This document shows positions 2,521 to 62,176 of a DNA stretch of 64,000 nucleotides, piece after piece. A program made the translations under genes and the position numbers. How positions within the stretch are numbered: the stretch's first letter is position 1; the number at the start of each line of letters is the position of its first letter. The stretch comes from Anaerolineae bacterium (lineage in GTDB: Bacteria > Chloroflexota > Anaerolineae > VGOG01): contig JBAWAP010000384.1 in assembly GCA_049589355.1 (NCBI GenBank), forward strand, positions 2,349-66,348, given 5' to 3'. Under the pieces are notes generated by a model that saw only the letters and a program-made list of their open reading frames with translations, had not been told where the DNA came from and made no database searches.

Positions 2521-2549
2521 ACTTGACAACATGGGCATCCTAACCTATA
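2521..2549 (+). promoter_or_regulatory. Consensus sigma-70 promoter (TTGACA-17 nt-TATAAT)
   Basis: ttgacaacatgggcatcctaacctataat. Both hexamers perfect with a 17-nt spacer. Confidence 0.55.
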
Positions 2550-2556
2550 ATTCCCC

Positions 2557-2710: not shown

Positions 2711-2743
2711 TAGCTTGTGGCAAATGGCTGACGCTACACTTCT

Positions 2744-3463
2744 ATGGAGGTTGCTATCATGAGTAAGGCTGAGAGACTTTATCGCTTGCAGACCATTGAC
2801 CTGGAGGTCGAGGCGAGGAACTGCCGCCTGAGAGAAGTGAAAGCCACTTTGGAAGGAAATGAGGAATTGCAACGAGTGCGGCAGGCCCTGCAAGACGGAG
2901 AGAAGAAACTGAGCCGGCAGCGAACGAAGCTGCGCGACAGGGAACTGGAGATGCAAAGCCTGACCAACAAGATTGTTTCGGTGGAGGATATTCTCTACGG
3001 CGGCCGTATCAAAACCCCCAAGGAGCTAGCCAATCTTCAGGAAGAGGTTCAGTACCTGAAGCGCAGGAAGGGCGAACTCGAAGATCAGGTGTTGGAATCC
3101 ATGATCGAGGTTGAGGAGAGCGAAGCCAGCGTGACGGAGCAGCGGGAGAGGCTGGCCCGCCTGGATGAGGAGTGGCAAGAGACCCAAGCCCGGCTCTCCG
3201 CCGAACAAAATGAGCTAATAAGCCGACTGAGCCAACTAAAGGCGGAACGGGCTGGACTACAGAGGGCAATTGAGGCAGGCGACCTGGCCTTATACGAGGA
3301 TTTGCGACGCCGCAGGGGTGGGCGAGCGGTGGCTCTCCTGGAAGGCGAACTCTGTCAGGCCTGCAGGGTGACCCTGCCCACCAGCAAGGCGCAACAGGCC
3401 CGTCAAGGAGAGGCATTGACCCTCTGCAGTAGCTGCGAGCGCATCCTCTATGTGGAGCGATAG
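2744..3463 (+). CDS. Coiled-coil zinc-ribbon protein (COG1579/DUF164-like, C4-type)
   Basis: Long coiled-coil region followed by CQACRVTLP...CSSCERILY C4 ribbon. Probable true start MSKAER at 2759. Confidence 0.7.
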   Translation: MEVAIMSKAERLYRLQTIDLEVEARNCRLREVKATLEGNEELQRVRQALQDGEKKLSRQRTKLRDRELEMQSLTNKIVSVEDILYGGRIKTPKELANLQEEVQYLKRRKGELEDQVLESMIEVEESEASVTEQRERLARLDEEWQETQARLSAEQNELISRLSQLKAERAGLQRAIEAGDLALYEDLRRRRGGRAVALLEGELCQACRVTLPTSKAQQARQGEALTLCSSCERILYVER

Positions 3464-13262: not shown

Positions 13263-14147
13263 TTACAAAGTCAGGCCATGCTTCTCGGCGAGCATCCGCG
13301 CCCTGGCCATCAGCGCGTCGTGATAGGGCTTGCGGTTGGCGGCGATGTGGCGGTATCCCTCCACCAGGTCGGGGTAATGCCTCTCCAGCACCCTCCTGAC
13401 CTTGCCCCAGATCGCGCCGCTCAGTTTCATGCTGTCCACGAAAATGTAGGAGACACCCGCCCGCGCCAGTTCTCCGAAGAGGGCATCCATTTGCTCCTCT
13501 CCGTCTGAGAGGAAGGGCAGAAGCGGCCCGCAGAAGGCCCAGGTTCTGATCCCCGCACTCGCCAGCTCTGCCAGGGTTACCAGGCGGGCTGGAACAGGCG
13601 AGGAGCGGGGCTCAAACACGCGCCGCACCTCCTCGTCGAGAGTGGCGATGGTGAAGCCTATTTCTATGTCAGGGAGACGGAGAAGGAGGTCGAGGTCGCG
13701 CAGCACCAGGTCGGATTTGGTGAGGATGGAGACGGGAAAATCGCAGGCGGTGAGCACCTCCAGGCAGGCGCAAGTGATTTGATACTTCCTCTCCAGCGGC
13801 TGGTAGGGGTCGGTTACCGTGCCAATGGCGATGTTACCCCTCTTGGCTCGCCTCATCTGTCGGGCCAGCACCTCCGCTGCGTTGATCTTGGCGTCCACAA
13901 AGGTGCCCCAGTCCTCTTTGTGGCCGGTGAAGCGCTTCATGAAGATGGCGTAGCAGTAGACGCAGCCGTGGCTGCAGCCGACGTAGGGGTTGATGGCATA
14001 GTCAACCCCCTCGATGCCCGATTTGGTGAGGATGGACTTGCAGTTTATTTCCTTTACGATCACGTCGTGCTTTCCATGGTCACTGGTAATCCCCAAGCCA
14101 GTGGATTCTGGAGAAGTCGTCCCGGACAGTGTTGTACAGCCTCTCAT
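13263..14147 (-). CDS. Radical SAM protein, spore-photoproduct-lyase-like (SPL family)
   Basis: CSHGCVYCY CxxxCxxC motif; N-terminal KSILTKSG region typical of SPL-like 'DNA repair photolyase' radical SAM proteins. Confidence 0.75.
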   Translation of the reverse strand: MRGCTTLSGTTSPESTGLGITSDHGKHDVIVKEINCKSILTKSGIEGVDYAINPYVGCSHGCVYCYAIFMKRFTGHKEDWGTFVDAKINAAEVLARQMRRAKRGNIAIGTVTDPYQPLERKYQITCACLEVLTACDFPVSILTKSDLVLRDLDLLLRLPDIEIGFTIATLDEEVRRVFEPRSSPVPARLVTLAELASAGIRTWAFCGPLLPFLSDGEEQMDALFGELARAGVSYIFVDSMKLSGAIWGKVRRVLERHYPDLVEGYRHIAANRKPYHDALMARARMLAEKHGLTL

Positions 14148-16452: not shown

Positions 16453-17496
16453 TCAAGCGTTTCTGGCTCTCATCCACTTGCGGAGCTGGGTCTTGGCCCA
16501 GCGATAGTGGCTGCTGGTGTTGGCGGCGGCCATGGTCCACAATGGGTTGCCGGCCCGCCATTCGAAGCGGTCTGGATCGATCAGGTCTTCTTCCGGCATG
16601 GCCTCTATCGTTTTCAGGACCTGCTGGTACGAGGCATGAAACTCGGCCAGTACATCGTCCAGGGGGCGATGGCGGTGTTTCTCAAAGGTCCGCTGGTTTA
16701 GAATGTCCAGGTCCCGCCAGGTGAGCCCAGGTTCTGGCGTTTCGGGAGTTAGGCCGCGCAGCCCTTCGTCGTACCAGCGCAGGAAGCGTTGCTCCCAGTC
16801 TACGAGATGGGCCAACAGGTCCTTGACCGACCACTCGCTCACGACGCCGGGCTGGATCATCTCATCTTCGTTTAATTCAGCCAAGTTCTTTTCCAACCGT
16901 CGCCGTTCGGCGCGGATTCTCTCCAGGATTATGTCCTTGTTCAACTGTTTGCCAGTGTGCTTTGTCTTCCAGCGGCGGATCTGCCTCTTCGCCCAGTCGT
17001 AGCAGTGGAAAGTATTGGCGGTGATGTAGTCAGCCAACGTCAGGTCTTCCGTCCAGGCAAAGCGACCAGGGGCAAACAGATCGGCTTCAGGGATTGTCTG
17101 TACGGTCGCCAGTACTTGCTGGAATGAAGTCATAAACTCGGCTAAAATGTCCTCCAGAGAGTGGCTACGATACTTCTCGATCTCGAGAACCAGGGCCTCA
17201 AAGCCATCTCGACTGACTTTGACGACAGGTGCTTCAGGGACATCACCCCGTGGACCAGCCCCGTACCAGTTCAGAAAACGTTGCTCCTGCGCTATGAGAT
17301 GAGCCAACAGTTCTTTGACCGACCATTCGCCTACGACACCTGGCTCCAACATCTCTTCTCTACCGAACTTGGGTCTGTTGCTGGCAACAAACGCCCCGTT
17401 GCTTCCTCGTTCGAAGTAGAAGAGGTATCTTTCCAATTGTCTATGCTTGACGCGGATTTGCTCAAGGAGTTCGTCCTTGCTCACCTTTTCTGCCAT
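16453..17496 (-). CDS. Tandem double ClbS/DfsB (DUF1706) four-helix-bundle protein
   Basis: Two repeats each containing WSVKELLAHL/WSVKDLLAHL and the C-terminal WAK/RQ motif. ClbS family = colibactin self-protection cyclopropane hydrolase fold. Confidence 0.65.
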   Translation of the reverse strand: MAEKVSKDELLEQIRVKHRQLERYLFYFERGSNGAFVASNRPKFGREEMLEPGVVGEWSVKELLAHLIAQEQRFLNWYGAGPRGDVPEAPVVKVSRDGFEALVLEIEKYRSHSLEDILAEFMTSFQQVLATVQTIPEADLFAPGRFAWTEDLTLADYITANTFHCYDWAKRQIRRWKTKHTGKQLNKDIILERIRAERRRLEKNLAELNEDEMIQPGVVSEWSVKDLLAHLVDWEQRFLRWYDEGLRGLTPETPEPGLTWRDLDILNQRTFEKHRHRPLDDVLAEFHASYQQVLKTIEAMPEEDLIDPDRFEWRAGNPLWTMAAANTSSHYRWAKTQLRKWMRARNA

Positions 17497-18339: not shown

Positions 18340-19317
18340 TCACAGACGAATCAGCTCTTCCAACCAGGGAACCGGCTCGTGCTTGCGTCGCCAAAACAGG
18401 TCCTCGAAGAGGTAGTGGGCGGCGAGCATCTTCCACTGGCCCCAGCGCCGGTCCACTTTGGCCAGGATCTGCTCGGCAGGTACAAGCTCTTGGTCAAACA
18501 GCAGCCGGGAGTAGATCTTTTGCTCCCACGGAGAGACGTGGTCAAACGCATCGTAACGATGGAAATTCCCGGACATCAGATACCACACTGTCGCCGGTCC
18601 GACGCCATAGAGCTTGAGCAGCGCTCGCTTCAACTCCTCGTTGGGTAGCTGGCGCAGAGCGTGGGCATCTATCTCGCCGTGAGCAAACTGGCTCGACATC
18701 CGCTTGAGCGATTTGGCCCGGTAGCCCACCTTGAGGGCGCGCAGGTCTTCCTCCGGCGCCGCATCCAGCACCTGCGGCGGCCAGAAGCCGTAGAGGACCT
18801 GGCCGTCGAAATGTAACCGGGTGCCATAGGCCCGAAAGAGGTTGTCCAGCATCTGCACCGAGCGGCGGACAGTGGCGTTCTGCAGCACGATGTAAACGAT
18901 CATGCTCTCGTAGAGGGGGCCAGTCACGTCGCGCATCCCCCGCCAGCGATGCAGGACCGGTTTCATCAATTCGTCGCGCTCAAGGGTGGCATTGAAGAGG
19001 GCAAGGTCAAGGTACAGATCAAAATTGTAGGCCACCTCGTCGCAGACAGCCTCGACATCCCCGGACGTCAGGGGGCGGTCGGCAAAGATCGTCAAACGCA
19101 ATAGCGGCTCGTCAACTGTGCCAACATTCTGAAGCTTGAGGCCGAAGAGATCGCTTCCCATGCGTTGAGTGACCCACAAGGTGCCCGGTTCCCAGAGTAC
19201 GTCGCCACTTGGAAAGTGACTGGGCTTGTGCACCGTGCCGTCAAAGTGGAATGGTGGCGTTGGCCGTATCTCTGTTTCGTGTGACACAGCCAGAGTCATT
19301 TGGGGTGCAGTGTCCAT
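18340..19317 (-). CDS. DNA-3-methyladenine glycosylase II-like (AlkA/HhH-GPD family)
   Basis: AlkA-like N-terminal domain plus HhH motif LYGVGPATVWYLM and catalytic Asp region. Confidence 0.7.
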   Translation of the reverse strand: MDTAPQMTLAVSHETEIRPTPPFHFDGTVHKPSHFPSGDVLWEPGTLWVTQRMGSDLFGLKLQNVGTVDEPLLRLTIFADRPLTSGDVEAVCDEVAYNFDLYLDLALFNATLERDELMKPVLHRWRGMRDVTGPLYESMIVYIVLQNATVRRSVQMLDNLFRAYGTRLHFDGQVLYGFWPPQVLDAAPEEDLRALKVGYRAKSLKRMSSQFAHGEIDAHALRQLPNEELKRALLKLYGVGPATVWYLMSGNFHRYDAFDHVSPWEQKIYSRLLFDQELVPAEQILAKVDRRWGQWKMLAAHYLFEDLFWRRKHEPVPWLEELIRL

Positions 19318-19346: not shown

Positions 19347-19844
19347 CTAGTTGTCTCTACTTCGGAACTCTTCAATCTGCCTGTGGTGGGTTTTCTCATC
19401 CTTGATCTCCGCTTGCAGGAGGCGCGCGATGGTGACTTTGTAGCCCTTGTAGCGGATTCCTCGGTCTTTGCCGAACTCTTCGGCCGGAATCGTCTCCAGA
19501 CAGCCTATGAGCTTTCGGAGGGAGTCCTCCACAGACGAAAGAAGGTCCGCAAAGTCATCCCTCTTGTACTCTGCGACCAGGCGCGCGTTGTAGGTCTTCC
19601 AATCACGGTCCTCGTAGGAGTAAAAGGCGGGCAGTTCGCCAGCGAGGATTGCTCTCGCAGCTTCCATGTTGGTGAAATCCCATCCTACCAGGTGGGCCAG
19701 CAGATCTTTGACGGACCAAACGCCAAGAAAGGCCTCATCTTGTTGGACCGGGGGCAGGGCAGACGCGGCGTCGAGGATCTTCCGCCGTGTTTCTGTCAGT
19801 TCCGAGATAATCTCGTCCTTCTTTGCTTGGGCTTTGGCACTCAC
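19347..19844 (-). CDS. ClbS/DfsB (DUF1706) family protein
   Basis: WSVKDLLAHLVGW motif shared with the tandem-domain paralog at 16453-17496. Confidence 0.65.
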   Translation of the reverse strand: MSAKAQAKKDEIISELTETRRKILDAASALPPVQQDEAFLGVWSVKDLLAHLVGWDFTNMEAARAILAGELPAFYSYEDRDWKTYNARLVAEYKRDDFADLLSSVEDSLRKLIGCLETIPAEEFGKDRGIRYKGYKVTIARLLQAEIKDEKTHHRQIEEFRSRDN

Positions 19845-19926: not shown

Positions 19927-20535
19927 TCACTTTACGAGGCTCAACGCCGCAGCGATGTCTTCCGCGATCATCCTTCTCTTGCTCTTCTCGATAAAGAAGC
20001 TGGGACCTGCCTGCAGGTAGGATGGGAACGCCCTCTTCTCTTGGAAGAAATATTCCTGCCCTCGGATCTTGTACGTGGACCCGGCGGGAATCACCCTCTC
20101 CTCACCGGCCCTCTTCGCGATGTAGTTAATGGCCTTGATGGCAACGTCGCCCATGAGCATCAGCACCTGCACATCTGGAAACAGGGCCAGTTCTTTCTCC
20201 AGCAGGAATGAACATTCCCTGATGGTGCTCGCCTCGATTCCGTATCCGGTCTTCCCGCATTTTACGGCAGTGGTGAGGTACACACCGAGATCGAGGATAT
20301 CCTGTATAGACGAGACATCCACACCAGCATCGTTGAATGCTTGAACGGTCGTCTGCTGAAACAAGGCCTCCCCTTCCGCATAGTAGTAGTCGCCAGAGTT
20401 CGCGGGTGCAGCTTCCGAGATCATCACGATGGAAATGTCCTCTGGCTTCACATTCACGTCCGGAATGATGTAGCACTCGTGCCTCACATCAGCACACGGA
20501 AAGTCTTTACATTCCACACACTTGCTCACTTGCAT
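19927..20535 (-). CDS. Uracil-DNA glycosylase superfamily protein (divergent, Cys-rich N-terminus)
   Basis: ~200 aa; CVECKDFPC N-terminal Cys cluster and UDG-like core. ATG at 20535 with GGAGG RBS. Confidence 0.45.
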   Translation of the reverse strand: MQVSKCVECKDFPCADVRHECYIIPDVNVKPEDISIVMISEAAPANSGDYYYAEGEALFQQTTVQAFNDAGVDVSSIQDILDLGVYLTTAVKCGKTGYGIEASTIRECSFLLEKELALFPDVQVLMLMGDVAIKAINYIAKRAGEERVIPAGSTYKIRGQEYFFQEKRAFPSYLQAGPSFFIEKSKRRMIAEDIAAALSLVK

Positions 20536-20587
20536 TTTGCCACCTCCTGCCAAATCTAACCCAGGACCTTCCCCTGGACTCTGGCGT

Positions 20588-21220
20588 CTAGGCCCCTTTC
20601 TCAACCGGATGTCTCAAGATCGTCCTTAGCCTCTCCGGCTTGGCCCGCCGAGGATCGCCCAAATAGATCTCATGATGTTTGCCACGAAGCCGATAGCCAT
20701 TCTCCCGAGCAAAGGTCATCATTTTCTCAATGGCTCGTGGCTCTTCAGCGTACGGTCCAAGGTGCATGATTTGCATACAAAGCCCTTCGTGGAAACCCTC
20801 AAATCGGATCTTAGATAAGGCTGGGTTTTCTCTCTTCTCTTTGACTTGTTGCAGGGCTTCCTGGTACATCTCCTCAGTGATGTGCTCTGGCTGCAGAATC
20901 ATCATCGTCCATTTCCAATCTTCTTTCTTGTTGAAATCGAACTCACCCGACTCCGTCCACCACAGCCCTTCCAGTGCCATCACTGTGTAATCAATAGGAT
21001 TCGTTTCTCGCAGTTTCGACATGAACTTCAACGTGTACGACACGCCGTACAGCGCACCCATTGCGCCCTGAAACTCCTGAGACGCTTCCGGTGTCTCACC
21101 GAGTTGGATCCCGCCGTCAACCATGACGAATTTGAACTTCGGCACGTCCACAATCTCCACCTTCTTTGCGGAGGGTGCGTAGAGGTACTTCAATTCCTTC
21201 TTTAGATCGATCTTGTTCAT
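20588..21220 (-). CDS. GyrI-like small-molecule-binding domain protein
   Basis: 210 aa, beta-alpha-beta-beta duplicated pattern. Family resemblance to YtkR7/C10R6-type cyclopropane hydrolases. Confidence 0.4.
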   Translation of the reverse strand: MNKIDLKKELKYLYAPSAKKVEIVDVPKFKFVMVDGGIQLGETPEASQEFQGAMGALYGVSYTLKFMSKLRETNPIDYTVMALEGLWWTESGEFDFNKKEDWKWTMMILQPEHITEEMYQEALQQVKEKRENPALSKIRFEGFHEGLCMQIMHLGPYAEEPRAIEKMMTFARENGYRLRGKHHEIYLGDPRRAKPERLRTILRHPVEKGA

Positions 21221-22644: not shown

Positions 22645-23667
22645 TCAAAAATTCAAGGTGTAAGACGATTCCCGCGCTGCGTGCGCAACGGCTAGGTTAA
22701 TCCGTTTTTGCACGCGCAGCACCAGGAAGGTGACCCAGGGCGAGGGGTTCTTCTTGTCGGCGAAGGACCAGCCCTTCCAGGCGCGGTACATCGAGCCCGC
22801 GGTGTAGTGGCCCTCCCCGTCCGCCTGAGCGGTGATCGTCTCCACCATCTCCCGGAAGCGAGGGTCAGTGTGAACGAACAGGAAACGGCTGAGCATGTCC
22901 ACCACGTGCAAGATGTCGTACCAGACGAACGGGTACTTGAGCTTGCGAAAGTCGGTACCGATGCCGAACATGTAGATCTTGCGCTCGATCCGGTGTTCCC
23001 AGTGCCAGAGGAGCATCTCGGCGCCAGTGCGTGTGGCCGGGCCGTCGAGCAATTCTGGAACCTGGGCCAGCGCCTTGAGCGCATAGACGTTGACGATGGG
23101 GCAGGGATCTTCTCTGCGCCCCGGCCCCTTGAACTTGCCCAGCTCCGGCGCGCCGACGCATCGCCAGCCGTTGCCGTCTACCAGGCCAATCAGGTGATCC
23201 ACCGCTCGCTGCACGCGCGGGTCGTTGCCCAGCCCCATCGCCAGCAAGGCGTAGAGCAACGTCGGTGCGTCGCACAGCATCCACGTCCATAAGTCCTCGC
23301 CTGTCCCACCAAAGGCCTCGGGGATGTTCACCAGGCTCTGGAAAGCCCCCTCCGGCGACTGGTGGGTCATCACAGCCTTGATGCCGGCGGACATACCCGG
23401 ATCATCCGCCCGTACGCCGAAGTCGGCCAGGGTGCTGAACTTGTAGAGGGGGTGGTTGGCGTCGTTGTGCCGCTGGAGGGCATAGCCGGGCCAGGTGGCG
23501 GCCTCGGCGATGAGCCCCTGCACTGGTGGATGGGCCAGCATCTCGGCGTGGGCAGTTTGCACTTCGGGGTCGTCTTCAGGCCGGTCGAGCAGATCCACCA
23601 GCGTGCGATACCGAGTCCAGGGCTCATCCGATTCCAGCAGCCATTGAATCAGATCAGTTTTTATCAT
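22645..23667 (-). CDS. Prenyltransferase/squalene-oxidase (QW) repeat alpha-toroid protein, paralog 1
   Basis: N-terminal DLIQWLLESDEPWTRYRTL motif; QxxxGxW-like repeats (QSPEGAF, VDGNGWRC, ADGEGHYT). Confidence 0.5.
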   Translation of the reverse strand: MIKTDLIQWLLESDEPWTRYRTLVDLLDRPEDDPEVQTAHAEMLAHPPVQGLIAEAATWPGYALQRHNDANHPLYKFSTLADFGVRADDPGMSAGIKAVMTHQSPEGAFQSLVNIPEAFGGTGEDLWTWMLCDAPTLLYALLAMGLGNDPRVQRAVDHLIGLVDGNGWRCVGAPELGKFKGPGRREDPCPIVNVYALKALAQVPELLDGPATRTGAEMLLWHWEHRIERKIYMFGIGTDFRKLKYPFVWYDILHVVDMLSRFLFVHTDPRFREMVETITAQADGEGHYTAGSMYRAWKGWSFADKKNPSPWVTFLVLRVQKRINLAVAHAARESSYTLNF

Positions 23668-27659: not shown

Positions 27660-30659
<3,000 letters not shown>

Positions 30660-31425
30660 GTCCCTCAGCCTGAACTTGGGCGGAAATCAGTTTTAGCCGC
30701 GTTGGCCACTCGTCAGGCTGTAACGCTGGCGCGTCAAACAGGGCTGGCGTCTCGACCCCGCCGATTACAGCGGGAAAGAACTCGATGCTGATTTCGTCTA
30801 CAAGCCCAGCACGCAAGAGCGCGCCGTTCAACTTGCCCCCAGCCGTTGACACCACACATGTAACACCCAACTGGTACCCCAGCTTCTCCAGGGCAGCGTG
30901 AAGATCAACTCGCTCTTCCCCTGCCACCAGGTAGGGAATCTTTTCGCGCTGGAGGTAGGCCAGATACTCGGGTGGAGTATGGTGGGCTACCAGGACCAGC
31001 AGGTGCCACCCTTCCCATCCCTCAAATTCTTTGTAAAACCATCGTACGCGTCCTCGACTATCCACAGCCGTGAACCACCCCTGATGTCCCGGACGATGGA
31101 CGACATCGTGTGGCAAAAAGTCCTGATACAGTGACTGAGGATCATCGTCAACGGGCGGGAGAGGCTCGGGCTCCGCGTCATTCAAAACAAAAGAGCCGCT
31201 GCCTTCAAGAAAGACTTGTGGTTTGTAGGTAAGCTTGAGCCGTTCGTATACATCGTCGCTTGATCCCGCGACAGCCTGCCATCTCTCGTCCCCGTATAGC
31301 AGAAGGACATCGGGTGCAAGCGTTATCCTCCCATCTACTGAAGCAACTGCATGGACTACCACTCGTGGTCTGTCCATAGACACTTTCCTCCTCTGTTCAA
31401 AATTGTGCCAGGTATCTTGAATTTA

Positions 31426-32388
31426 TCATCCAACGGATGCGTACTGCGCTGCGATGGCGCGGGCCCGTTCGCTCACCAGGCAACGTAATTCCTCCGGCTC
31501 CAGCACCACGGCGTGGGGGCCATAACTGAACGCCAGCCGGGCCGGCCACTCCAGGTCTAACGCGGCGAAGGTGACGATCACCGAGCCGTCGGGCTGCTCG
31601 TCCACCGTGTCCCAGAAGGCACGGTCATCGAGCGCCAGGAGCGCCGCCTCTGGGGCGAAGCACATGCGGACTTGCACCTGTGGCTGTGCCTCTGGCTCCG
31701 CAGCCAGGTACTCCTGGATGTCGAAATCGCCTGGCACCTGGAAGATCTGGTTGAGCAGTGTCAGTTCGATGATGCGATCCACGCGGAAGGTACGCACGGC
31801 CTCGCGCAGGTGGCAGTGGCCGATGACGTACCACCAGCCCCAGCGGTGGATCAGCGCATAGGGATCGAAATCTCGCTGCAGGGGTTCTGACTGCCCACGG
31901 CTCCGGTAGGCCACCGTGACTCGTCGCCGCTCACGGGTCGCGCGCCGCAGTTTCTCCAGCAGCGGTACCAGCGGCGTGAAGTCGGCGCGGTGCATACCGG
32001 TCGCCCACAGTGTCCGACGCGCCCAGGCCACTTCGTGCCGCTGTTCGTCGGGGAGCACGTTAACCAGCTTGGCCAGCGCGCCTTGCGCCGCCTCACGGTA
32101 CATCTGGCCCCAAATCTCTTCCACCAGGCTGGTGCCCAGATAGACGGCGACGGCCTCCTCGGGGGTGAAAACAAGCGGGGGCATCTTGTAGCCACGCACT
32201 AACGAGAAGCCGCCGTAGGGGCCGCGCTCGGAGTAAACCGGGATGCCCATCTCGTCCAGCATCATGATGTAGCGGTGCAAGGTGCGCACCGAGATACCCA
32301 ATTCCTCCGCCAGTGCAGCCGCTTTCTGGCTGGGTCGCCGCTGCAATAGCATGATCAGTGAGATCAGTCTGGTAGCAGTGTTCAACAT
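31426..32388 (-). CDS. WYL-domain transcriptional regulator (HTH-WYL-WCX, YafY/PafBC/DriD-like)
   Basis: N-terminal HTH (SVRTLHRYI), central WYL (HRWGWWYVIGHCHLREAVRTFRVDRI), C-terminal WCX-like region. Confidence 0.8.
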   Translation of the reverse strand: MLNTATRLISLIMLLQRRPSQKAAALAEELGISVRTLHRYIMMLDEMGIPVYSERGPYGGFSLVRGYKMPPLVFTPEEAVAVYLGTSLVEEIWGQMYREAAQGALAKLVNVLPDEQRHEVAWARRTLWATGMHRADFTPLVPLLEKLRRATRERRRVTVAYRSRGQSEPLQRDFDPYALIHRWGWWYVIGHCHLREAVRTFRVDRIIELTLLNQIFQVPGDFDIQEYLAAEPEAQPQVQVRMCFAPEAALLALDDRAFWDTVDEQPDGSVIVTFAALDLEWPARLAFSYGPHAVVLEPEELRCLVSERARAIAAQYASVG

Positions 32389-32497
32389 GATGCTCTCCCT
32401 CGATCGTCCGATGGACGGGGTACGACAATATTCTACACCAGGTTTATGACAAAAGCTGGCATAATTGTAGTGGAGTTTGAGGAAAAATCAAATGGAT

Positions 32498-32941
32498 TTA
32501 GCCAGGAAGAGGGACTCCACAGGCGCGGCAGGTCTCGCTATAGATGTCCACCGGTTTGCGGCAAGCAGGGCAGCGCCAGCGAGCCTCCTGCTCAACCAGC
32601 CAGGCATCGAGGCCGACCTCGGCCAGGCGGCGCAGGTTGGAGAGAGGGATGTCGCGGCGGTCGGCGCTGAAGGCGGCCAGTTCCTTGCAGGGAAAGTCCA
32701 TGCACTCATAGCAGAAGGTGATGCCCTGGTCCTGCGTGCAGGTCTTGAATCGGCAGTCCGGAGTCCAGAGGCAGTCAAAGGGGCCACGACAGCCCTCGCA
32801 GCGGATGTCCTCCGGCTGGCAGTGGAAGGCCTGGCGGGCGGCCCGTTCCAGCCGTTCGGTGTCCCTGTCTTTGTACATCCGGTAGATGCCGCAGGCCCCG
32901 CAGTAGAGACCGCAGGCGCTGGCTAATGTAGTGTCAGTCAT
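32498..32941 (-). CDS. DUF3795 cysteine-rich protein
   Basis: CGLYCGACGIY...CEGC...C..C..C...CYECMDFPCKEL. ATG at 32941 forms ATGA overlap with the stop of the upstream toroid gene. Confidence 0.75.
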   Translation of the reverse strand: MTDTTLASACGLYCGACGIYRMYKDRDTERLERAARQAFHCQPEDIRCEGCRGPFDCLWTPDCRFKTCTQDQGITFCYECMDFPCKELAAFSADRRDIPLSNLRRLAEVGLDAWLVEQEARWRCPACRKPVDIYSETCRACGVPLPG

Positions 32942-33837
32942 TTCACCTCTTCCCCGAATTGTTTGAGCACGTGCAAGGCTTTGAGTGTGATCCACTTGCT
33001 CGGTTGCCCATTGCGCTCGATGCGCACGGCGGTGGAGCCGCCCTCCTTGAACCAGCGACCATCGTCCTGCTGTTTCTTCACGACGTGCTGCACCAGTGTC
33101 CAAAACCGTGGGTCGGCGGCGTAGCCGCAGGCGGCCAGCGCCTCCAGCGCGTCCAGCAGGTCGGACTGAAAGTACCACGGGAAGCCGAATCGCAGCCAGC
33201 AGGCTTCCTCACCCTCGAAATCGAAGTCGTGGGAGAGGAGTGCTTCGGCTGTACGGGCTATCGCGCCGCGGACGTCCCAACCTTTAGGGGCGGCGGCAAA
33301 GGCCCACAGCGCTTTGACTGCCAGCCAGTGGCAGGGGTGCTGCTTCTGGTACCAACAGATGAGGCCATCGTCCTGCTCCAGCCGCTCAATCATCGCTCTC
33401 CAGCCTTCATCCACACGGGGATCGTCCCCGTAGCCGAAATGGGCGAGGAAGCGCAGGCAGTTGGCAGTGTAGCAGGGCACAATGCACACCGGCCGGCGCA
33501 TCGGGAGCCAGGGCTTGCTCAGCACGAACTCGCAGCCTCGGTGAGTGCGCTCGTCGGGCGGGACGCCTAAACGGGAAAGGATGAGGAGTTGTCCTGATGC
33601 GCGTTTGATCCCGGTTGCCCTTTCCGGCGTATCCCACCAGCCAGTGGGATCCTGGCGGGCGAAGATGGCCTGCACGTCCTTCGAGCCGGGGATAGCCGCG
33701 CGTGCCTCGCTCACTTCGGGGCTGCCGGTGGGCCGTTCAAGGATGTCGGTGAGCGTGAAGTAGCGCACCGAGGAATTATCTAGTTCGAGAAGCCAATCGG
33801 TTGGATCTGCCTTTAAGAGGTCTTTCCAATTCGCCAT
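32938..33837 (-). CDS. Prenyltransferase/QW-repeat alpha-toroid protein, paralog 2
   Basis: DLLKADPTDWLLELDNSSVRYFTL N-terminus; QDPTGWWD, QDDGLICWY, QQDDGRWFKEG repeats. Confidence 0.5.
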   Translation of the reverse strand: MANWKDLLKADPTDWLLELDNSSVRYFTLTDILERPTGSPEVSEARAAIPGSKDVQAIFARQDPTGWWDTPERATGIKRASGQLLILSRLGVPPDERTHRGCEFVLSKPWLPMRRPVCIVPCYTANCLRFLAHFGYGDDPRVDEGWRAMIERLEQDDGLICWYQKQHPCHWLAVKALWAFAAAPKGWDVRGAIARTAEALLSHDFDFEGEEACWLRFGFPWYFQSDLLDALEALAACGYAADPRFWTLVQHVVKKQQDDGRWFKEGGSTAVRIERNGQPSKWITLKALHVLKQFGEEVK

Positions 33838-33871: not shown

Positions 33872-34882
33872 TCATCCCGATTCCGCCGGCAACCAGTGCA
33901 GTCCCTCGCCCTGGGCGGCGAGCGCCAAGCCCCACCCGAACGGCTCGCTCACCCGCAGCACGGCGGTAAGACAGTGCGTGCCAGACGCTAACACCTGCCG
34001 GAGGGCTTGCATCCCCAACTCTACGTACCCGCGTGCCGCGCGGTCCGCAAAGCCTTGGAAAGTGTTCTCCCCACTGAAGATAACCTGCCCGTCCAACTCC
34101 AGGGTAAGAGCATCACTGAAGCCAAACTCGAATGTCATTGCCCCTCCCTCAGGCGTCTCGAAACGTCGGGTCAGACGCACTTCGCTCAACGAGATTGGCA
34201 GGTAGCGGTTCAGGTTGATCACACCATTCGGTTCGCAGGTCACTACGCCGTAACCCTCCACGAACCAGGCTCTGACAGTGCCTTCGCCAGCGCTGGGCAT
34301 CTCTCCGCGTGGGATATCCAGCCTATCACAGGTTGAGACTCGCAGGTCGCAAAAGTAGGCCGGGCGATAGGTCCACAGCCCAAAAAGCCCAGCCGCGATT
34401 GGATGAGCCAGCTTCTCCATGATCAACGGCGGCTGCCCATCTACCGAAACAGCGGCTCGGCCGCCACAAAAATCCACCTTCAGTCGGAACCAGTGCCCGG
34501 TCGGCACCTGCGTGGCGCGTTGGTAGCTCGGGCCATGATACACCTGCCAGGTGTTCGATCCATGGAAGACCGGGTCATACTGCAGCGCATCCCACTGGCC
34601 ACTGACGTGAGGTACGGCGTAAGCCAGCTCAAAGTTGAGTACATCGGCGACACGGAAAGCGACACCCGGATACGCCGGCCCATCAGCGCCAATCAGCATC
34701 TCTATGCTGGCGTCCGTCATCCGGTGGCCGGGGATCAGGGCCAAACCGTCCTCCAACCGCAGCGCCTCGCGCCCCTGCCAGGTGACGACCTCAGCCCGCG
34801 CCGCGTGGATTTCCAGGTCGGGAATGTTGGTAAGGCTGTGTTCCAGGAGAGTGTCCATCTCGAATGACTCCTTGCGTTTCAC
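33872..34882 (-). CDS. Hypothetical protein (possible tandem concanavalin/LamG-like jelly-roll domains)
   Basis: 336 aa, beta-rich, no recognised catalytic motif. Confidence 0.3.
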   Translation of the reverse strand: MKRKESFEMDTLLEHSLTNIPDLEIHAARAEVVTWQGREALRLEDGLALIPGHRMTDASIEMLIGADGPAYPGVAFRVADVLNFELAYAVPHVSGQWDALQYDPVFHGSNTWQVYHGPSYQRATQVPTGHWFRLKVDFCGGRAAVSVDGQPPLIMEKLAHPIAAGLFGLWTYRPAYFCDLRVSTCDRLDIPRGEMPSAGEGTVRAWFVEGYGVVTCEPNGVINLNRYLPISLSEVRLTRRFETPEGGAMTFEFGFSDALTLELDGQVIFSGENTFQGFADRAARGYVELGMQALRQVLASGTHCLTAVLRVSEPFGWGLALAAQGEGLHWLPAESG

Positions 34883-34918: not shown

Positions 34919-35848
34919 TCAGGCATCCGCGGCCTTGATCGCGTACAGCGCCTGCCACGTGACCCATTTACTGGGTCGGCGACGCGGTTCCAGTGGGGTC
35001 CACATACGGCTACCGTAGGGATTAGCACCGTTCCAGCGACCGTCGTCACGGCGTCGGGTCTCCAGCCACTCTAGCGCCTTGCGAAAAGCGGGTTTTTCGT
35101 TCACGCGCCCCAGGTCGGTCAGGGCGCGCAGGGCGAAGAGCACGTCAGCCTGGTAAAAGAGCGGAAAGTTGAGCCGGTCCCACAACTTGTGGCGTGGGCC
35201 GCTGCTGGGATAGTTCCCCTCGCAGAGTTCAAAACGGCCCAGGAAGCAGACACCGCTCGCAACCGCCTCTTGGACAGCACCACTGCGCTCGCCGCTGGGG
35301 ATATGCCCGAAACCCCATAATGCCCGCACCACGCCCCAGGCGCAGGGCAGGTCTCCGTTGATGTTGCAACGCCACTCCCCCGGCGTGCCTGCGCGGGCCA
35401 GTTCTGCCTCGAACTCCCCCACCCGTTCATCCTGTCCGTGACCGAGGGCGTGCAGGTAACCGATAAGGTTGCCGTGGAAGCAGGGCCAGACAGTGGAGCG
35501 GTCCTCACCGTACACCCTGTCAATCATCCGATGGCAGGCAGCGGCGATACGTTCGTCCTGCCCATCGGCGGCGAGTTCGGCCAGCAGGAGCAATTGCCAA
35601 TGAGTCGAGGTATACTTGTAAGTGTAATAACCCCGCTCACCTTCCCAGCGTCCATCGCCGGCATAGTGGGAGAGAATCTCGACCGCCGGCCCTCGTTCCA
35701 GGATCGCCCGACGCATCTCGATCACTTCCGCATCTCCCTCGGTTCGGTCGAGCAACTTGACCAACGTCCAGTAGCGAACCGAGGGGTTCTCTGGCTCCAG
35801 CAGCCATTCCGTCGGGTCGGCTTTGAGTCTACTTTTCCAGTTTCTCAT
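34919..35848 (-). CDS. Prenyltransferase/QW-repeat alpha-toroid protein, paralog 3
   Basis: RLKADPTEWLLEPENPSVRYWTL N-terminus; AGDGRWEGE, RRDDGRWNGANP repeats. Confidence 0.5.
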   Translation of the reverse strand: MRNWKSRLKADPTEWLLEPENPSVRYWTLVKLLDRTEGDAEVIEMRRAILERGPAVEILSHYAGDGRWEGERGYYTYKYTSTHWQLLLLAELAADGQDERIAAACHRMIDRVYGEDRSTVWPCFHGNLIGYLHALGHGQDERVGEFEAELARAGTPGEWRCNINGDLPCAWGVVRALWGFGHIPSGERSGAVQEAVASGVCFLGRFELCEGNYPSSGPRHKLWDRLNFPLFYQADVLFALRALTDLGRVNEKPAFRKALEWLETRRRDDGRWNGANPYGSRMWTPLEPRRRPSKWVTWQALYAIKAADA

Positions 35849-35868: not shown

Positions 35869-36489
35869 CTATCGCACTCCAAGAATTTCTCTCGCCACCT
35901 CCAACGTTCGATCTGCCAGAAACAGCAGTCTCCTTTGGATCTCCTCCTCGTTAATCAGGCCGCCAAAGAGGTTCTCTGTCGTGAAGCCAGCGTTATTGAT
36001 GACCTCGAAACCGGCCAGCTTTCTCCCCATACACTTCGCATCGTCGGACACTAAGCCTGGCGTCCATTGTGCACCATCTGACCAGTGAGGGGCGGCCAGG
36101 ACCACGGCGCTGACGACAGAGCGTTTTAGTTTCTCCACCGGCGCCTGATGGGAGAAAGCTTGCGCTCTCTGAGAAAAGGCTATCCACAGAGCGGGTGGCA
36201 GGCCGCCATAATTCGGTATGAAGAGTAGCAAGATATCCGCCTGCTAGCACTTCTCCCAGATCATTCGTACATCGTCTTCAATCGGGCAGGCTTCATCTGC
36301 TCTGCGCTGTGGATCGAAGCGAGCCACACACTCATACGAGCAGCGCTGGCAGGGGGTGATTTGGCAGTCATAGAAGTTGATCAACTCCCCCTCTACGCGC
36401 TGCTGTTTGAGCCGCTCCAGCATAAACTCGGCGAAGTCATAGCAATTGCCTCGCTCTCTGGCGCTGACTACCAAGGCCAGGGCTTTCAT
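35869..36489 (-). pseudogene. Flavodoxin-like/NADPH-dependent FMN reductase-like gene interrupted by an in-frame TAG
   Basis: ORFs 36244-36489 and 35869-36231 are in the same frame, separated only by TAG (WEKC*QADILLLFIPNYGG). Confidence 0.45.
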
Positions 36490-37445
36490 CGCCTCCTCCC
36501 TCTCCCCGGGTTTGGAATGTAACGCAGGGCCACTTCGGCGGCTTGTGCTCGCTGCTCATCCTGTAGCCAGCCCTCCAGAACCGGCCGCACGGCCTCAGGC
36601 TGGCGCTGGCCCAGATAGTGGAGTGCAGAAGCGGCGGCTCGCCAGACAAAGCGCCGCTCGTCAGCCGCCAACTGGCCGAGGATTTCGAGTGCCTCCTGCA
36701 AATGTCGAGTTCCCCCGAAGCTACGAAAGGCCATGGCCACATTCCACCGCACCTCTTCTCTGGGGTCATCGGCCCAGCGACGAAGGCGGGCCAGAGTGGG
36801 CCGCGGATGGCACCTCAAGAGCCCATCGCCGATGGCATAGGGACCCAGATTCTTGCGTACGTACTCCTCGCGGTCGGCGAGTAGCGACTCCACCAGGTTG
36901 AGGAGGGCCTCGGCCCACTCTTCTCTCCGCTCGTTGCCCGCCTTCCGCACGGCGATGGTCACACCTCGCCGCACGTTGGCAGAAGGATGCCGCGTCCAGG
37001 ACCAGAGAACGCGGTAGAAGACGTCGAAGTGGGCTACGAGGAGGCTGCCCAGCGTACTATGGGCAGCCTCGCGGACCCACCAGTCCTCGTCGTCGGCGAG
37101 ACGCAGAAGCCATGCCTGAACCTCGGCAGCCCGCAAGGGCCAGTAGTGACGAAGCAAAGGGGCTGCGACGGCTCTCGCCGCTGGCTCCGGCCGCTCGGCC
37201 AGACGGCAGGTCCAATCGTAGAGCTCTTCCGTCCCAGGACCGAGGGCCTCCTCGATAGTCACCATGGCCTGGTAGCCAGTCTTGCCCCACTTGGTGGTCA
37301 TCAGGGTAGCAACCAGGCCCTCCTCGTCATCGGCTTCGAGAGCGCGTTGCGCAGCCTGAGCGTCGAACTGGCCCTTGGACGAACTTGCAAGCCCAGGTGT
37401 GCGGGTTGTTTCCTGGTGTTGCGGCAACCGGTTGGCCAACGACAT
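36486..37445 (-). CDS. DNA alkylation repair protein (AlkD/AlkC-like HEAT-like-repeat glycosylase family)
   Basis: WWVREAAHSTLG, NVRRGVTIAV, EVRWNVAMAF motifs typical of the DNA_alkylation HLR family. Confidence 0.65.
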   Translation of the reverse strand: MSLANRLPQHQETTRTPGLASSSKGQFDAQAAQRALEADDEEGLVATLMTTKWGKTGYQAMVTIEEALGPGTEELYDWTCRLAERPEPAARAVAAPLLRHYWPLRAAEVQAWLLRLADDEDWWVREAAHSTLGSLLVAHFDVFYRVLWSWTRHPSANVRRGVTIAVRKAGNERREEWAEALLNLVESLLADREEYVRKNLGPYAIGDGLLRCHPRPTLARLRRWADDPREEVRWNVAMAFRSFGGTRHLQEALEILGQLAADERRFVWRAAASALHYLGQRQPEAVRPVLEGWLQDEQRAQAAEVALRYIPNPGRGRRR

Positions 37446-37465
37446 GGCTACATCCCCTTTATATA

Positions 37466-37507
37466 GAACGAATGTTCGACATCCACATTATACCAGAACA
37501 TCTGTTC
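37466..37507. promoter_or_regulatory. Two Cheo-type LexA (SOS) boxes GAAC-N4-GTTC
   Basis: AGAACGAATGTTCG (37465-37478) and AGAACATCTGTTCG (37495-37508), positioned over the spacer and +1 of the promoter below. Confidence 0.6.
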
Positions 37508-37515
37508 GTTGTCAA
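37487..37515 (-). promoter_or_regulatory. Consensus sigma-70 promoter (TTGACA-17-TATAAT) driving the AlkD-like gene and downstream minus-strand genes
   Basis: Minus-strand reading cTTGACAacgaacagatgttctggTATAATg, ~45 nt upstream of the ATG at 37445. Confidence 0.6.
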
Positions 37516-37737
37516 GTTCGTGTAAGCAGGAATGTGCATTTCAGTTCTGGGGCAAATGCCATGGCGAGCGAAGCGAAGCAATCTCCTTTCCTGCATTTGG
37601 GGATTGCTTCGTCGCTGCGCTCCTCGCAATGACAGACTGCGCCAACCCTCAGTCTCGCCCCCAAATTGAAATACACCTTAAGCAGGGCGGCATTTGACTT
37701 TTTGTGGCCTGATCAGTATAATACTAATAGCTTGAGC

Positions 37738-37812
37738 GCGGGTGTGACGCAGGGGTAGCGTATCTGCTTCCCAAGCAGAGTGTCGAGGGTTCGAATCCCT
37801 TCACCCGCTCCA
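37738..37812 (+). tRNA. tRNA-Gly (anticodon CCC)
   Basis: GCGGGTG acceptor stem, anticodon stem TCTGC/GCAGA with loop TTCCCAA, T-loop GGTTCGAATCC, 3' CACCCGC-T-CCA. Confidence 0.9.
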
Positions 37813-50131: not shown

Positions 50132-50539
50132 CTAGGACGGAAACTCGGTCTCGATGTGGGTACAGCACTCCACCAGCTCCTGGGCGGCCTTGACGTTGCG
50201 CATGATCATGGCCATGTTGCCCTTGAGCTTTATCTGACGGGTCAGCAATCCCTGGATCACGTCCAGCTTCTTGGTAACCACCTTTTCCCAGACACTCAAG
50301 GGTGCTGCCATCCTGAACACCGGTTCCTTCTCACTCTCATCGGTGACCAGGTAGGCATCGCGACACTTGCCATGCCAGAGGTCCATGTAGTAGATGACAG
50401 GCCCCGTCATGCTGCCCTCGGGGGTGATAATGAAATAGAAATCCCCCTCCCATTGCTCAGCCGCCTTGGCATACGGCTCGCTTTGATTGATATCAACCTG
50501 GAGCGCCTTGATCCATTCGTCCAAAAGAAACTTTGGCAT
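50132..50539 (-). CDS. SCP2 sterol-binding domain protein
   Basis: C-terminal KLDVIQGLLTRQIKLKGNMAMIMRN matches SCP2 fold signature. Confidence 0.65.
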   Translation of the reverse strand: MPKFLLDEWIKALQVDINQSEPYAKAAEQWEGDFYFIITPEGSMTGPVIYYMDLWHGKCRDAYLVTDESEKEPVFRMAAPLSVWEKVVTKKLDVIQGLLTRQIKLKGNMAMIMRNVKAAQELVECCTHIETEFPS

Positions 50540-50696
50540 TATCTTCCTCCTTGAAGTATTGTTATCATTCAGTACCACATCGAATTGAGAAAGGAACTAA
50601 TTTCTTTGAAGTAGGGATTCCGCAACGTGGGAAATTATACAACTGATGCGAGCAATGGTCAAGGAAGAAGCAAGCGGACTGCTTGAACGTAACTGC

Positions 50697-59354: not shown

Positions 59355-60938
59355 CTAGTAAAAGATATCTTCAAACAACGGCGCAAAAACGTCCTCGTCC
59401 ACCTCAATACCAGCAGGGACCGCTAATGGCAGTTTGTCAGAATCATAGAACCCAACCCTCTCTTTCTTCAAGAGTCGAAAATTGGGGTCACTTAAGACGT
59501 GATCAGTGTGAGTGCATGAGGGTAACCAACCTTTCACATTTGCTTCGTATGAGAGCAACCACTGTGAATCATACAGGTTGGCTTCATCCATATAAGTTTC
59601 CCAGAGGGTTGTGTCTAGACCGGATGGTATCAGCCCTCGCTCATTAGCGTCTAACGTGAGCAGCGCCACTATAGAATCATGCATCCTTGACAACGCGGCG
59701 GCAGCGGCGGGATCAATTGTAATCCCGAAGAAGATTGCGGCCCAAACAGACCAGGCAGCTTCGCCCCCATAATTCGAGGCGCACTGATGTACGATTTCAC
59801 TATTTAGTACCTCGCCAACTGAAGCAACATCAATATCGAAGCCTAATTGATGATATTGAATCAACAACTCCAGGACTTGGAAAAATGTTCCAGTCTCAAC
59901 CATTAGGCATTGAAACAGGAAATGTTGAAGCAACGGCCAGTTGGCGCGGTCAATTGCCTCACTCTTATCTTCTCTAGGAGAAAGCCGTGCGACAGCGTAC
60001 TCGAGGACGTGGTCCTTGGAATGTTCGCGTGCGAGTTCAAAAGCCAGATCGAAATAGGTCATCAGGTCAGTGGCTTGTGCTTTAGGGGTGCTTCGGAATC
60101 GGAATGTTCGCAACTGGGGAACCCATCTGGCCACAATGCGAATCGGCAACTCGATTATCTCTGTCTTATCCGAGTTTAGTTCGAGCTCATATTCCCGCAG
60201 TACTGCGCGAAGCGTAGATAGGGCAGACTCGGCTTCTGATCGCGATCGAAACCCAAACTCAAATTCGTCCACAAATCGAAAGCCCCTGATCTTTCCGAGT
60301 TGTTTTTCCAGTTCCTCGTCGGTTGCATTAAGGATTATCTCGGCTATCAAAAACGATGTATCGGGGCCAATCGGTATGCCTATGGTCTGATCATCCTGCC
60401 CGCGCCTGATCCACCGATCTAGCGAGTTGCCGATATGCTGATTACCACGATTGACCTTTGCAAAGTCTTTACCGTGAATTGCCCACGGAATGCTATGTGT
60501 ATAAACCGACGGGTAGAATTTTGAGATATCGGCCTTGAGGATGAACTTTGAGGTAGATCTAGCCTGCAATCGCATCGCAGGTAAATCATCGTAAGTCACT
60601 ATTGGTACAATAGCACGACTTGTAGGTTGCCCAATGGTGGGCTTGCTACAAGAGATTCTTGAACGGTTCGCAGCGCTGCTTAACTGAGGCCAGTTATTTA
60701 CCACATCACAGCAAAGGTTGTGTTGAACTATTGGGTTGGGGATCGATAAAAACCTGCGATTAATGCCTACGCGCGCGAAACTATGGCGCACAGGCTTTGC
60801 CCGTTTGGGGTCGTTGAAGGTGTTTGGAAGATGTCCAGCATTTGCGGCCATTACTTGTGCGAATCGCTCAGTCGAGAACGGCGCTGGGAGTTTAGCAGGG
60901 AAGAAACCGCGAGATAATAGCAATGATAAGTCGGTCAT
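59355..60938 (-). CDS. Reverse transcriptase, Abi/DRT (unknown-group) type, integron cassette 1
   Basis: RT motifs ILKADISKFYPSV (motif 2), IGIPIGPDTSFLIAEIIL (motif 4), FRFVDEFEF at the YxDD position; 130-aa N-terminal and ~230-aa C-terminal extensions. Confidence 0.65.
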   Translation of the reverse strand: MTDLSLLLSRGFFPAKLPAPFSTERFAQVMAANAGHLPNTFNDPKRAKPVRHSFARVGINRRFLSIPNPIVQHNLCCDVVNNWPQLSSAANRSRISCSKPTIGQPTSRAIVPIVTYDDLPAMRLQARSTSKFILKADISKFYPSVYTHSIPWAIHGKDFAKVNRGNQHIGNSLDRWIRRGQDDQTIGIPIGPDTSFLIAEIILNATDEELEKQLGKIRGFRFVDEFEFGFRSRSEAESALSTLRAVLREYELELNSDKTEIIELPIRIVARWVPQLRTFRFRSTPKAQATDLMTYFDLAFELAREHSKDHVLEYAVARLSPREDKSEAIDRANWPLLQHFLFQCLMVETGTFFQVLELLIQYHQLGFDIDVASVGEVLNSEIVHQCASNYGGEAAWSVWAAIFFGITIDPAAAAALSRMHDSIVALLTLDANERGLIPSGLDTTLWETYMDEANLYDSQWLLSYEANVKGWLPSCTHTDHVLSDPNFRLLKKERVGFYDSDKLPLAVPAGIEVDEDVFAPLFEDIFY

Positions 60939-60992
60939 GTCATTTGATAGGTGAATCTACCTCCAAGTCTAATGCTCAATCAATCTTCAGTT

Positions 60993-61085
60993 TCGATTTG
61001 AAGCGCCTAACTATTGAGTATACGGAATCCATCTTTCCTTGCCATTTAAGCGTCTTAGACGGAATCAACCTAATCTGCTAGCAAG
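60993..61085. other. attI region with GTTAGGC crossover core (minus-strand reading) at 60993-60999
   Basis: GTTAGGC 55 nt upstream of the RT start, between the first cassette and intI. Confidence 0.5.
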
Positions 61086-61114
61086 GTTGCATTTGCGGGA
61101 ATTGTGTGTATAAT
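61086..61114 (+). promoter_or_regulatory. Candidate P_intI promoter (TTGCAT-16-TATAAT)
   Basis: ttgcatttgcgggaattgtgtgtataat ~100 nt upstream of intI ATG. Confidence 0.45.
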
Positions 61115-61216
61115 AACCCTGTTCCCAGCCCTTCTGCGGAATGTGCCAGATGGCCGGGTAGATGCATTATAAAGCGCAATCCAGAAAAAGTCAACCTGTA
61201 CCGGAGGAAAACCGCG

Positions 61217-62176
61217 ATGGAACCCGCTTCTAGAAAACTGCTCGATCGAGTCCGAGATGCCCTGCGCCTCAAACACTACTCCATCCGTACCGCAGTTTCC
61301 TACGTGAATTGGATCCGACGCTATGTCCTATTCCACAATAAGCGACATCCCAACGAAATGGGCAGCGTCGAGGTCGAAGCCTTTCTCACCCATCTGGCGG
61401 TGAAGGAAAACGTCGCCGCATCCACACAAAACCAGGCCCTCAGCGCTCTGCTGTTTCTGTACCGCGAGGTGTTGAAAAAAGACCTGGGGCCTATAGACGC
61501 CCTGCGCGCGAAAAAGCCCAAACGCCTGCCCACCGTCCTGACTCGGGAGGAGGTGCGCCGCGTCCTCGGCCACCTGTCGGGCACGCACCAACTAATGGCC
61601 AAACTGCTCTATGGTAGTGGCCTGAGGTTGATGGAGTGTGTACGCCTGCGCGTCAAAGACCTGGATTTTGCCCAGCGGGCGATTGTCATCCGCGACGCCA
61701 AGGGCGACCAGGACCGGGTGACGATGCTGCCCGAAAGCCTCATCGCACCGCTACAGGAACATCTGCTGCGTGTAAAACGCCTGCACGAAGAAGACCTGGC
61801 CAAAGGCTATGGCGCCGTCTACCTGCCCTACGCCCTGGAACGCAAATACCCCAGTGCCGACCGGGAATGGACCTGGCAATATGTCTTCCCTGCGCAGCGG
61901 CTTTCCGTGGACCCTCGCAGCGGCGTCGTGCGCCGCCACCACGTAGACGAGAGCGGTCTGCAAAAGGCGGTTCGAGAGGCGGCCCGCCTGGCCGGCATCC
62001 CCAAACCGGTCAGCCCCCATACCTTCCGCCACAGCTTTGCCACCCATTTGCTGGAAAATGGCTATGACATCCGCACCGTGCAGAAGCTCCTCGGCCATAA
62101 GGATGTGAAAACAACCATGATTTACACCCACGTCCTCCAGCGCGGCGGCCTGGCAGTACGCAGCCCACTGGACTAG
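61217..62176 (+). CDS. intI: Integron integrase IntI (tyrosine recombinase)
   Basis: Integron-specific insertion [23 protein letters not shown]...[26 protein letters not shown]; catalytic R..HxxR..Y ([12 protein letters not shown]...IYTHV). Close resemblance to IntI1 across the whole length. Confidence 0.9.

Follow-up and report, generated by a model that had tools for sequence, protein, structure and literature searches.

The minus strand of the window, by which we mean the whole 64-kb stretch of DNA that was analysed, carries a consensus sigma-70 promoter combined with two palindromes of the type GAAC-N4-GTTC. We read this arrangement, with a probability of roughly 0.8, as a LexA-repressed, damage-inducible promoter of the six-gene unit 37445-32498. 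The reading is based on three comparative observations: the boxes are conserved at the heads of homologous operons, the same motif is found at the same position in front of lexA genes, and SOS genes are common behind the same pattern in metagenomes. This evidence supports the first-pass annotation of the region, in which the downstream genes had been predicted to be under LexA control and inducible by the SOS response.

The promoter region, read on the minus strand as cgaacTTGACAacGAACAGATGTTCtggTATAATgtggatgtcGAACATTCGTTCtatataaaggggatgtagccATG, matches the sigma-70 consensus in 12 of 12 positions according to a consensus scan and consists of TTGACA, a 17-nt spacer and TGnTATAAT. The -35 hexamer TTGACA (37510-37515) can be read directly and is conserved in the related loci L001, L004, L009 and L142. 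The extended -10 element TGgTATAAT, detected by the same scan, is located at 37487-37495 (-10 hexamer 37492-37487, TG 37495-37494). Hence, the element TTGACA-17 nt-TATAAT described in the first-pass annotation is present as stated, and the same applies to the box reported within its spacer. This box 1, GAACAGATGTTC, is an exact GAAC-N4-GTTC sequence and putative LexA operator lying between the -35 and -10 elements on the minus strand (37496-37507). A second putative LexA operator, box 2 (GAACATTCGTTC, 37466-37477, minus strand), is likewise exact, begins after a linker of 9 nt past the -10 hexamer and covers the predicted start region. Assuming that transcription starts 7 nt after the -10 hexamer, i.e. 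at about 37480, box 1 would extend from about -27 to -16 and box 2 from about +4 to +15. The first-pass annotation, which put the second box at +1, thus came close to this position.

Neither box deviates from the palindrome at any of its 8 arm positions. Compared to the extended Cheo-box consensus CGAAC-N4-GTTCG, each of them has the C at the 5' side (CGAAC), but a T instead of a G after GTTC. Their placement is suited to occlude the promoter, with box 1 filling the spacer of the 12/12 promoter and box 2 lying just past the -10 hexamer. A Shine-Dalgarno sequence AGGGGA (37458-37453) is located 7 nt ahead of the ATG at 37445, and the predicted leader comprises about 35 nt. With its -35 and -10 elements and 17-nt spacer located at a suitable distance from a start codon that has a ribosome binding site, the sequence corresponds to a sigma-70 housekeeping promoter.

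A chance occurrence of the promoter together with the two boxes is excluded. By chance, 0.002 promoters of the 12/12 type with a 17-nt spacer would be expected per window. For exact GAAC-N4-GTTC boxes, three were found in the 64 kb (0.84-0.89 expected), and the only ones present in the approximately 7.4 kb of intergenic DNA are box 1 and box 2 (about 0.1 expected). The third exact box (50315) was rejected as a regulatory site because it is located inside a gene (50132-50578). When up to 2 mismatches to the extended sequence CGAAC-N4-GTTCG are allowed, the window contains 34 sites compared to 29 expected, which is no enrichment, so that only exact or near-exact sites at promoters are informative.

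An additional CGAAC half-site (37516-37520, minus strand) abuts the -35 hexamer on its 5' side (cgaacTTGACA). It is probably due to chance, because it is not conserved in L001, which has cgaatTTGACA at this position. Further upstream and in divergent orientation, there is a gene for tRNA-Gly(CCC) (37738-37812), which has a separate 11/12 promoter and a terminator. A palindromic repeat element (37545-37640), consisting of GTCATTGCGAGGAGCGCAGCGACGAAGCAATC and an inverted copy, separates the tRNA promoter from the promoter described here. The element folds into a long hairpin (-44.7 kcal/mol, z = -2.3) and is present as a single copy in the window, and several related copies were observed in L004 (5340-5700 and 7500-7700).

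The putative unit 37445-32498 comprises six tightly packed minus-strand genes, which overlap or are separated by gaps of at most 36 nt. Gene 1 (36486-37445, minus strand) encodes an AlkD/AlkC-like HEAT-repeat protein of 319 aa (Pfam DNA_alkylation 5e-12, plus HEAT_2). With 46.4 bits against the PF08713 DNA_alkylation profile (cut-off 21) it matches this family significantly, and a weak sequence match to AlkC structures was obtained against the PDB (E = 0.022). Its homologs with 72-90% identity derive from metagenome contigs, those with names being Anaerolineae MAGs. Gene 2 (35869-36489, minus strand) encodes an FMN_red-type flavoprotein (FMN_red 8e-11 when read through a TAG codon). This in-frame TAG (36244-36246, minus strand) interrupts the gene, which could be a pseudogene or the result of an assembly error.

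Gene 3 (34919-35848, minus strand) encodes a protein of 309 aa, for which no Pfam family was found above cut-off. Its AF2 model (pLDDT 85) is an (alpha/alpha)6 barrel, and we refer to this protein as toroid 1. A fold search of the PDB with this model yielded nothing beyond weak similarities to class II terpene cyclases (TM about 0.5, E > 0.003); as these are generic (alpha/alpha)6 barrels, no function was assigned from them. Like those of gene 1, the homologs of toroid 1 derive from metagenomes and, if named, from Anaerolineae MAGs. The members of the toroid family, mostly from Anaerolineae, are annotated only as "hypothetical protein". Three cysteines (Cys123, Cys161 and Cys169) never vary within the family, and two histidines (His83 and His220) are almost unchanged; this pattern suggests a metal or thiol site. 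Gene 4 (33872-34882, minus strand) encodes a protein of 336 aa with no match in Pfam, NCBIfam or the sequences of the PDB; a homolog with 87% identity follows the toroid 1 homolog in L002. An NCBIfam search of the proteins without family added nothing. Gene 5 (32938-33837, minus strand) encodes toroid 2 (299 aa), a paralog of toroid 1 with 33% identity, and gene 6 (32498-32941, minus strand), the last gene of the tightly packed unit, a Cys-rich DUF3795 protein of 147 aa (Pfam DUF3795 6e-16). The first-pass annotation had listed an AlkD-like gene, a flavodoxin-like gene and toroid/DUF3795 pairs. The AlkD-like and the flavodoxin-like genes are indeed present, the latter with its in-frame TAG, but instead of pairs we found two toroids, only one DUF3795 gene and additionally the gene for the 336-aa protein.

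The six genes are followed on the minus strand by a gap of 109 nt (32389-32497) and the genes 27660-32388, which encode a WYL-HTH-WCX regulator (31426-32388), a RibD_C reductase and a canonical UvrA (NCBIfam equivalog). The gap lies ahead of the WYL gene, contains the promoter-like sequence TTGATT-16-TACAAT and shares 86% identity with its counterpart in L001 (12551-12665). No GAAC-N4-GTTC box was detected in it. This gap is a probable separate start for the WYL-RibD_C-UvrA genes. Since these genes have their own conserved promoter-like element, LexA may or may not control them, and the earlier, tentative extension of the control to the WYL-DHFR-UvrA genes is not supported. It might nevertheless be that a single, very long transcript induced by DNA damage places the entire co-directional array, including WYL-RibD_C-UvrA and the genes behind it, under LexA control. 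The genes between 37445 and 6154 all lie on the minus strand, and read-through into WYL-RibD_C-UvrA is possible because a search of this strand from 37445 to 27660 revealed no intrinsic terminator. Moreover, uvrA belongs to the SOS response in many bacteria. Yet we consider such a transcript rather unlikely: apart from the conserved element in the 109-nt gap there are further promoters downstream, e.g. a 12/12 promoter at 14821-14793, and in the relatives the box-bearing promoter heads operons of differing gene content.

The 109-nt gap and its equivalent in L001 also contain the sequence TGTCATAA-N8-TA(G/T)AAT. It recalls the sequence TGTCGGTG-N8-TAnnnT, which we take to be the PafBC-dependent promoter of mycobacteria. 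By analogy, this PafBC-like element may indicate a LexA-independent, WYL-driven control of uvrA.

In total, the co-directional minus-strand genes span about 31 kb of the window (6154-37445) and are unusually rich in types related to DNA repair or genotoxin resistance. Among them are genes for an AlkZ-like protein (7362-8651), a radical SAM protein (13263-14147), two DinB_2/DUF1706 proteins (16453-17496 and 19347-19844), an HhH-GPD protein (18340-19317), a UDG-superfamily protein (19927-20604), a GyrI-like protein (20588-21220) and a third toroid (22645-23667), all on the minus strand. Seven DUF3795 paralogs are present in the window. As a tentative proposal, which we regard as possible rather than probable, the LexA promoter would be the entry to a "genotoxin defence" array of about 31 kb (6154-37445). 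The toroid and DUF3795 proteins, which form two functionally unassigned families, would then represent new damage-inducible components of adduct repair or detoxification beside the AlkD-like, AlkZ-like, HhH-GPD, UDG-family, GyrI-like, DinB_2 and UvrA proteins, and the array would be under dual control, its head being governed by LexA and uvrA by a PafBC-like WYL regulator.

The promoter at 14821-14793 (TTGACA-17-TATAAT, minus strand) is the second 12/12 promoter observed. It is followed after 7 nt by GAACATCAGTGC (14785-14774), which has one mismatch to the LexA box and may be a weak LexA site. The 88-aa ORF (14758-14492) and the PIN-domain gene (14592-14080) behind this promoter resemble a toxin-antitoxin pair of the VapBC type. 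Outside the array, a reverse-transcriptase gene (59355-60938, minus strand) adjoins a gene for a phage-type integrase (61106-62176, plus strand). The G+C content is lower there (0.48-0.53), and the region 59355-62176 possibly represents a mobile element or an insertion resembling a retron or group II intron.

In Firmicutes and Actinobacteria the LexA motif is GAAC-N4-GTTC, variations of which occur in other groups, e.g. in Chloroflexi (PMC4951493). Our literature searches for Anaerolineae yielded no description of an SOS or LexA regulon in this class. We therefore turned to the lexA genes of Anaerolineae, the loci of which were fetched by protein identity alone and are thus unbiased as to the motif. 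All five independent lexA promoters (L133, L134/135, L136/137, L138/139 and L140/141) show the same order of TTGAC(A/T), 1-2 nt, GAAC-N4-GTT(C/T), 3-4 nt and TATAAT. Four of the boxes are exact and one has a single mismatch (n=5), these values referring to the class and not to the source genome. Box 1 has the position of the operator in these promoters, and the second lexA gene of L133 displays the full dual-box layout with TTGACAtaGAACGCATGTTCtggTATAAT, 7 nt and GAACATGCGTTC. The promoter of the window is hence organised like the lexA promoters of this class. Most likely, the Anaerolineae lexA promoters are autoregulatory. Together with the published motif (PMC4951493), these five promoters support the earlier designation of GAAC-N4-GTTC as the LexA operator of Gram-positive and Chloroflexi lineages. 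In addition, we observed that lexA can occur in Anaerolineae as tandem paralogs of about 215 and 205 aa, each with its own GAAC-N4-GTTC promoter (L130, oriented 1832-3266; L133, 3925-5500).

A scan of metagenomes with the pattern TTGACA-N0-5-GAACN4GTTC-N0-5-TATAAT gave at least 120 loci, which were selected on the pattern itself and for most of which the taxonomy is not established. The 96 first downstream ORFs among the matches listed include 16 LexA proteins, 5 Y-family polymerases and 2 RecA-fold proteins, besides 6 radical SAM proteins, 4 DUF6504 proteins, 4 LysM proteins, 1 AlkZ-like protein and 1 MgsA. One of the matches, L130, carries two tandem lexA genes, the second of which shows the dual-box layout of the window. 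All homologs of the L130 LexA that bear a name (68-84% identity) belong to Anaerolineae or Chloroflexota.

No lexA or recA gene was detected by tblastn in the window or in the AlkD-type loci (queries: LexA of E. coli and B. subtilis, RecA of E. coli). The link to LexA accordingly rests on other Anaerolineae genomes and on synteny. At the left end of the window there are genes for SurE (1310-552) and a nitroreductase (532-2), both on the minus strand, which are 78% and 73% identical to the pair directly preceding lexA in L134. Judged by this SurE-nitroreductase-lexA arrangement, the lexA gene of the source genome is probably located just beyond coordinate 1, i.e. just off the left end of the window.

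The palindromes could also be the operators of another repressor, either of the WYL/HTH protein as a local autoregulator (31426-32388, 5 kb downstream) or of only the second, shorter LexA paralog. The WYL-HTH-WCX regulator is indeed encoded in the same gene array, an order that recurs in L001, and where two tandem lexA paralogs exist (L130, L133) either of them could be the binder. However, the box motif is found in lexA promoters themselves and ahead of classic SOS genes, and the WYL gene is preceded by a separate conserved region that lacks GAAC-N4-GTTC. Furthermore, L006 and L009-L011 possess the boxes but have no WYL gene within 8 kb to either side; because of this missing linkage the WYL protein was rejected as the binder of the boxes. 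Overall, we regard control by another repressor as improbable.

The LexA-control reading is further based on the conservation of the boxes at related operon heads. For this comparison the promoters of the window, L142, L001, L004 and L009 (L009-L011) were aligned. The promoter of the closest homolog, L142, reads TTGACAaaGAACAGATGTTCtggTATAATatgaacgccGAACATTTGTTC and contains both boxes, with ATTT as N4 of box 2. L001 has a box 2 identical to that of the window and a box 1 decayed to GCACAAATGCTC (2 mismatches). The promoter of L004, which heads a DUF3795 gene, has an identical box 1 and, as box 2, GAACAAAAGTTC (N4 = AAAA). At L009-L011 the promoter heads a DUF3795/toroid/radical-SAM/AlkD-like operon and combines a box 1 with 1 mismatch (GAACGCATGCTC) with an exact box 2 (GAACAAAGGTTC). 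A different promoter layout, TTGACA-tgtcGAACATTTGTTCg-TATAAT, was found in L006, where it heads an operon of AlkD, AlkZ-like, DUF3795, hydrolase and DinB_2 genes.

Box 1 is exact in three of the five aligned lineages (window, L004 and L142). The eight arm positions of box 2 are invariant in all five, while its N4 varies (ATTC/ATTT/AAAA/AAAG) with changes at 3 of 4 spacer positions, and the 9-nt linker has for the most part changed as well. Constant arms beside a variable N4 and linker are the signature of selection on a palindrome bound by a dimer. The decay of box 1 in L001 and L009 points to box 2 as the site that this operon family probably cannot do without, and box 1 may be dispensable. 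The box-bearing loci have no regulator gene in common, which fits a regulator acting in trans. No box was found with related genes in other contexts in L012 and L144, indicating that the control is specific for lineage and context; in L143, L003 and L005 the homolog is operon-internal or has no upstream box.

It is very improbable that the promoter is simply strong and constitutive and that the GAAC-N4-GTTC matches are non-regulatory sequences inherited with a promoter cassette of a common ancestor: although the promoters of the window, L142, L001, L004 and L009 are clearly homologous, so that shared sequence alone is weak evidence, and mismatches are tolerated in box 1 of two lineages, the arms of box 2 stayed invariant while 3 of 4 spacer positions and most of the linker changed, L006 has the box within a promoter of different layout, and the layout recurs at unrelated lexA genes; moreover, the number expected by chance is far below one.

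If the promoter is repressed by LexA, the mechanism may be pictured as follows. The dimeric repressor with the lineage operator GAAC-N4-GTTC would occupy two operators on a consensus sigma-70 promoter. LexA bound to box 1, between the -35 hexamer and the extended -10 element, would exclude RNA polymerase, and LexA bound to box 2 (about +4 to +15) would block open-complex formation or promoter escape. The centres of box 1 and box 2 are 30 bp apart, i.e. nearly three helical turns, so that two dimers could lie on approximately the same side of the DNA and bind cooperatively. Upon DNA damage, RecA would stimulate LexA to cleave itself and thereby release a very strong (near-maximal) promoter, from which the AlkD-like HEAT protein, the flavoprotein, toroid 1, the 336-aa protein, toroid 2 and the DUF3795 protein would be transcribed.

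Anaerolineae occur abundantly in sediments and digesters, and most of these bacteria are uncultured. For this class the promoter of the window and the collected lexA promoters provide a usable operator model, namely GAAC-N4-GTTC 1-2 nt past the -35 hexamer. The placement of the AlkD-like HEAT protein, the toroids, the DUF3795 protein and the 336-aa protein in a predicted damage-inducible unit gives a handle on a possible role in DNA-damage tolerance.

In B. subtilis, the operators of the lexA (dinR), recA and uvrBA promoters overlap promoter elements, and several operators per promoter occur. The host considered here is an uncultured member of the Anaerolineae, and the genes predicted to be regulated are not classic SOS genes. 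Furthermore, one operator lies exactly in the spacer of a 12/12 promoter and the second about 30 bp downstream. The palindrome arms and the 4-nt spacer are the same as in the Cheo/SOS box (CGAAC-N4-GTTCG) of B. subtilis (PMC4951493). For Dehalococcoides ethenogenes, which belongs to the Chloroflexi, a LexA box of the Gram-positive type GAAC-N4-GTTC has been described (Fernandez de Henestrosa et al. 2002, as cited in PMC4951493). This organism shares the phylum and the motif type with the source of the window but belongs to the class Dehalococcoidia, not to the Anaerolineae. The work on D. ethenogenes reportedly concerned lexA itself and not an AlkD-like/toroid/DUF3795 operon.

The same layout as in the window is found in the Anaerolineae lexA promoters (L133, L134, L136, L138 and L140), and the second lexA genes of L133 and L130 also have, like the window, a second box 7-8 nt past the -10 hexamer. 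These promoters drive the repressor gene, whereas the promoter of the window drives repair-like genes. They differ also in the flanks of the boxes, which are typically taGAAC...GTTCgt at the lexA genes compared to acGAAC...GTTCtg and tcGAAC...GTTCta in the window.

The B. subtilis gene yhaZ, a PF08713 (AlkD-family) gene, is said to belong to the LexA regulon. If it is controlled by LexA, it would be a precedent for gene 1, but yhaZ is a single gene and not the head of a multi-gene cluster. It is named in PMC1976550 only as an alkyltransferase-type repair gene. In the Ada response of E. coli (ada-alkB, alkA, aidB) alkylation-repair genes are likewise controlled upon DNA damage. The logic is entirely different, however, since Ada acts as an activator in response to methyl transfer and the window shows a repressor-operator arrangement of the SOS type. 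This arrangement, in its Gram-positive/Chloroflexi form, is already known. New are its documentation for Anaerolineae and its cargo of AlkD-like, toroid and DUF3795 genes. As the regulatory principle is textbook SOS control, the gain lies in annotation and hypotheses rather than in the concept.
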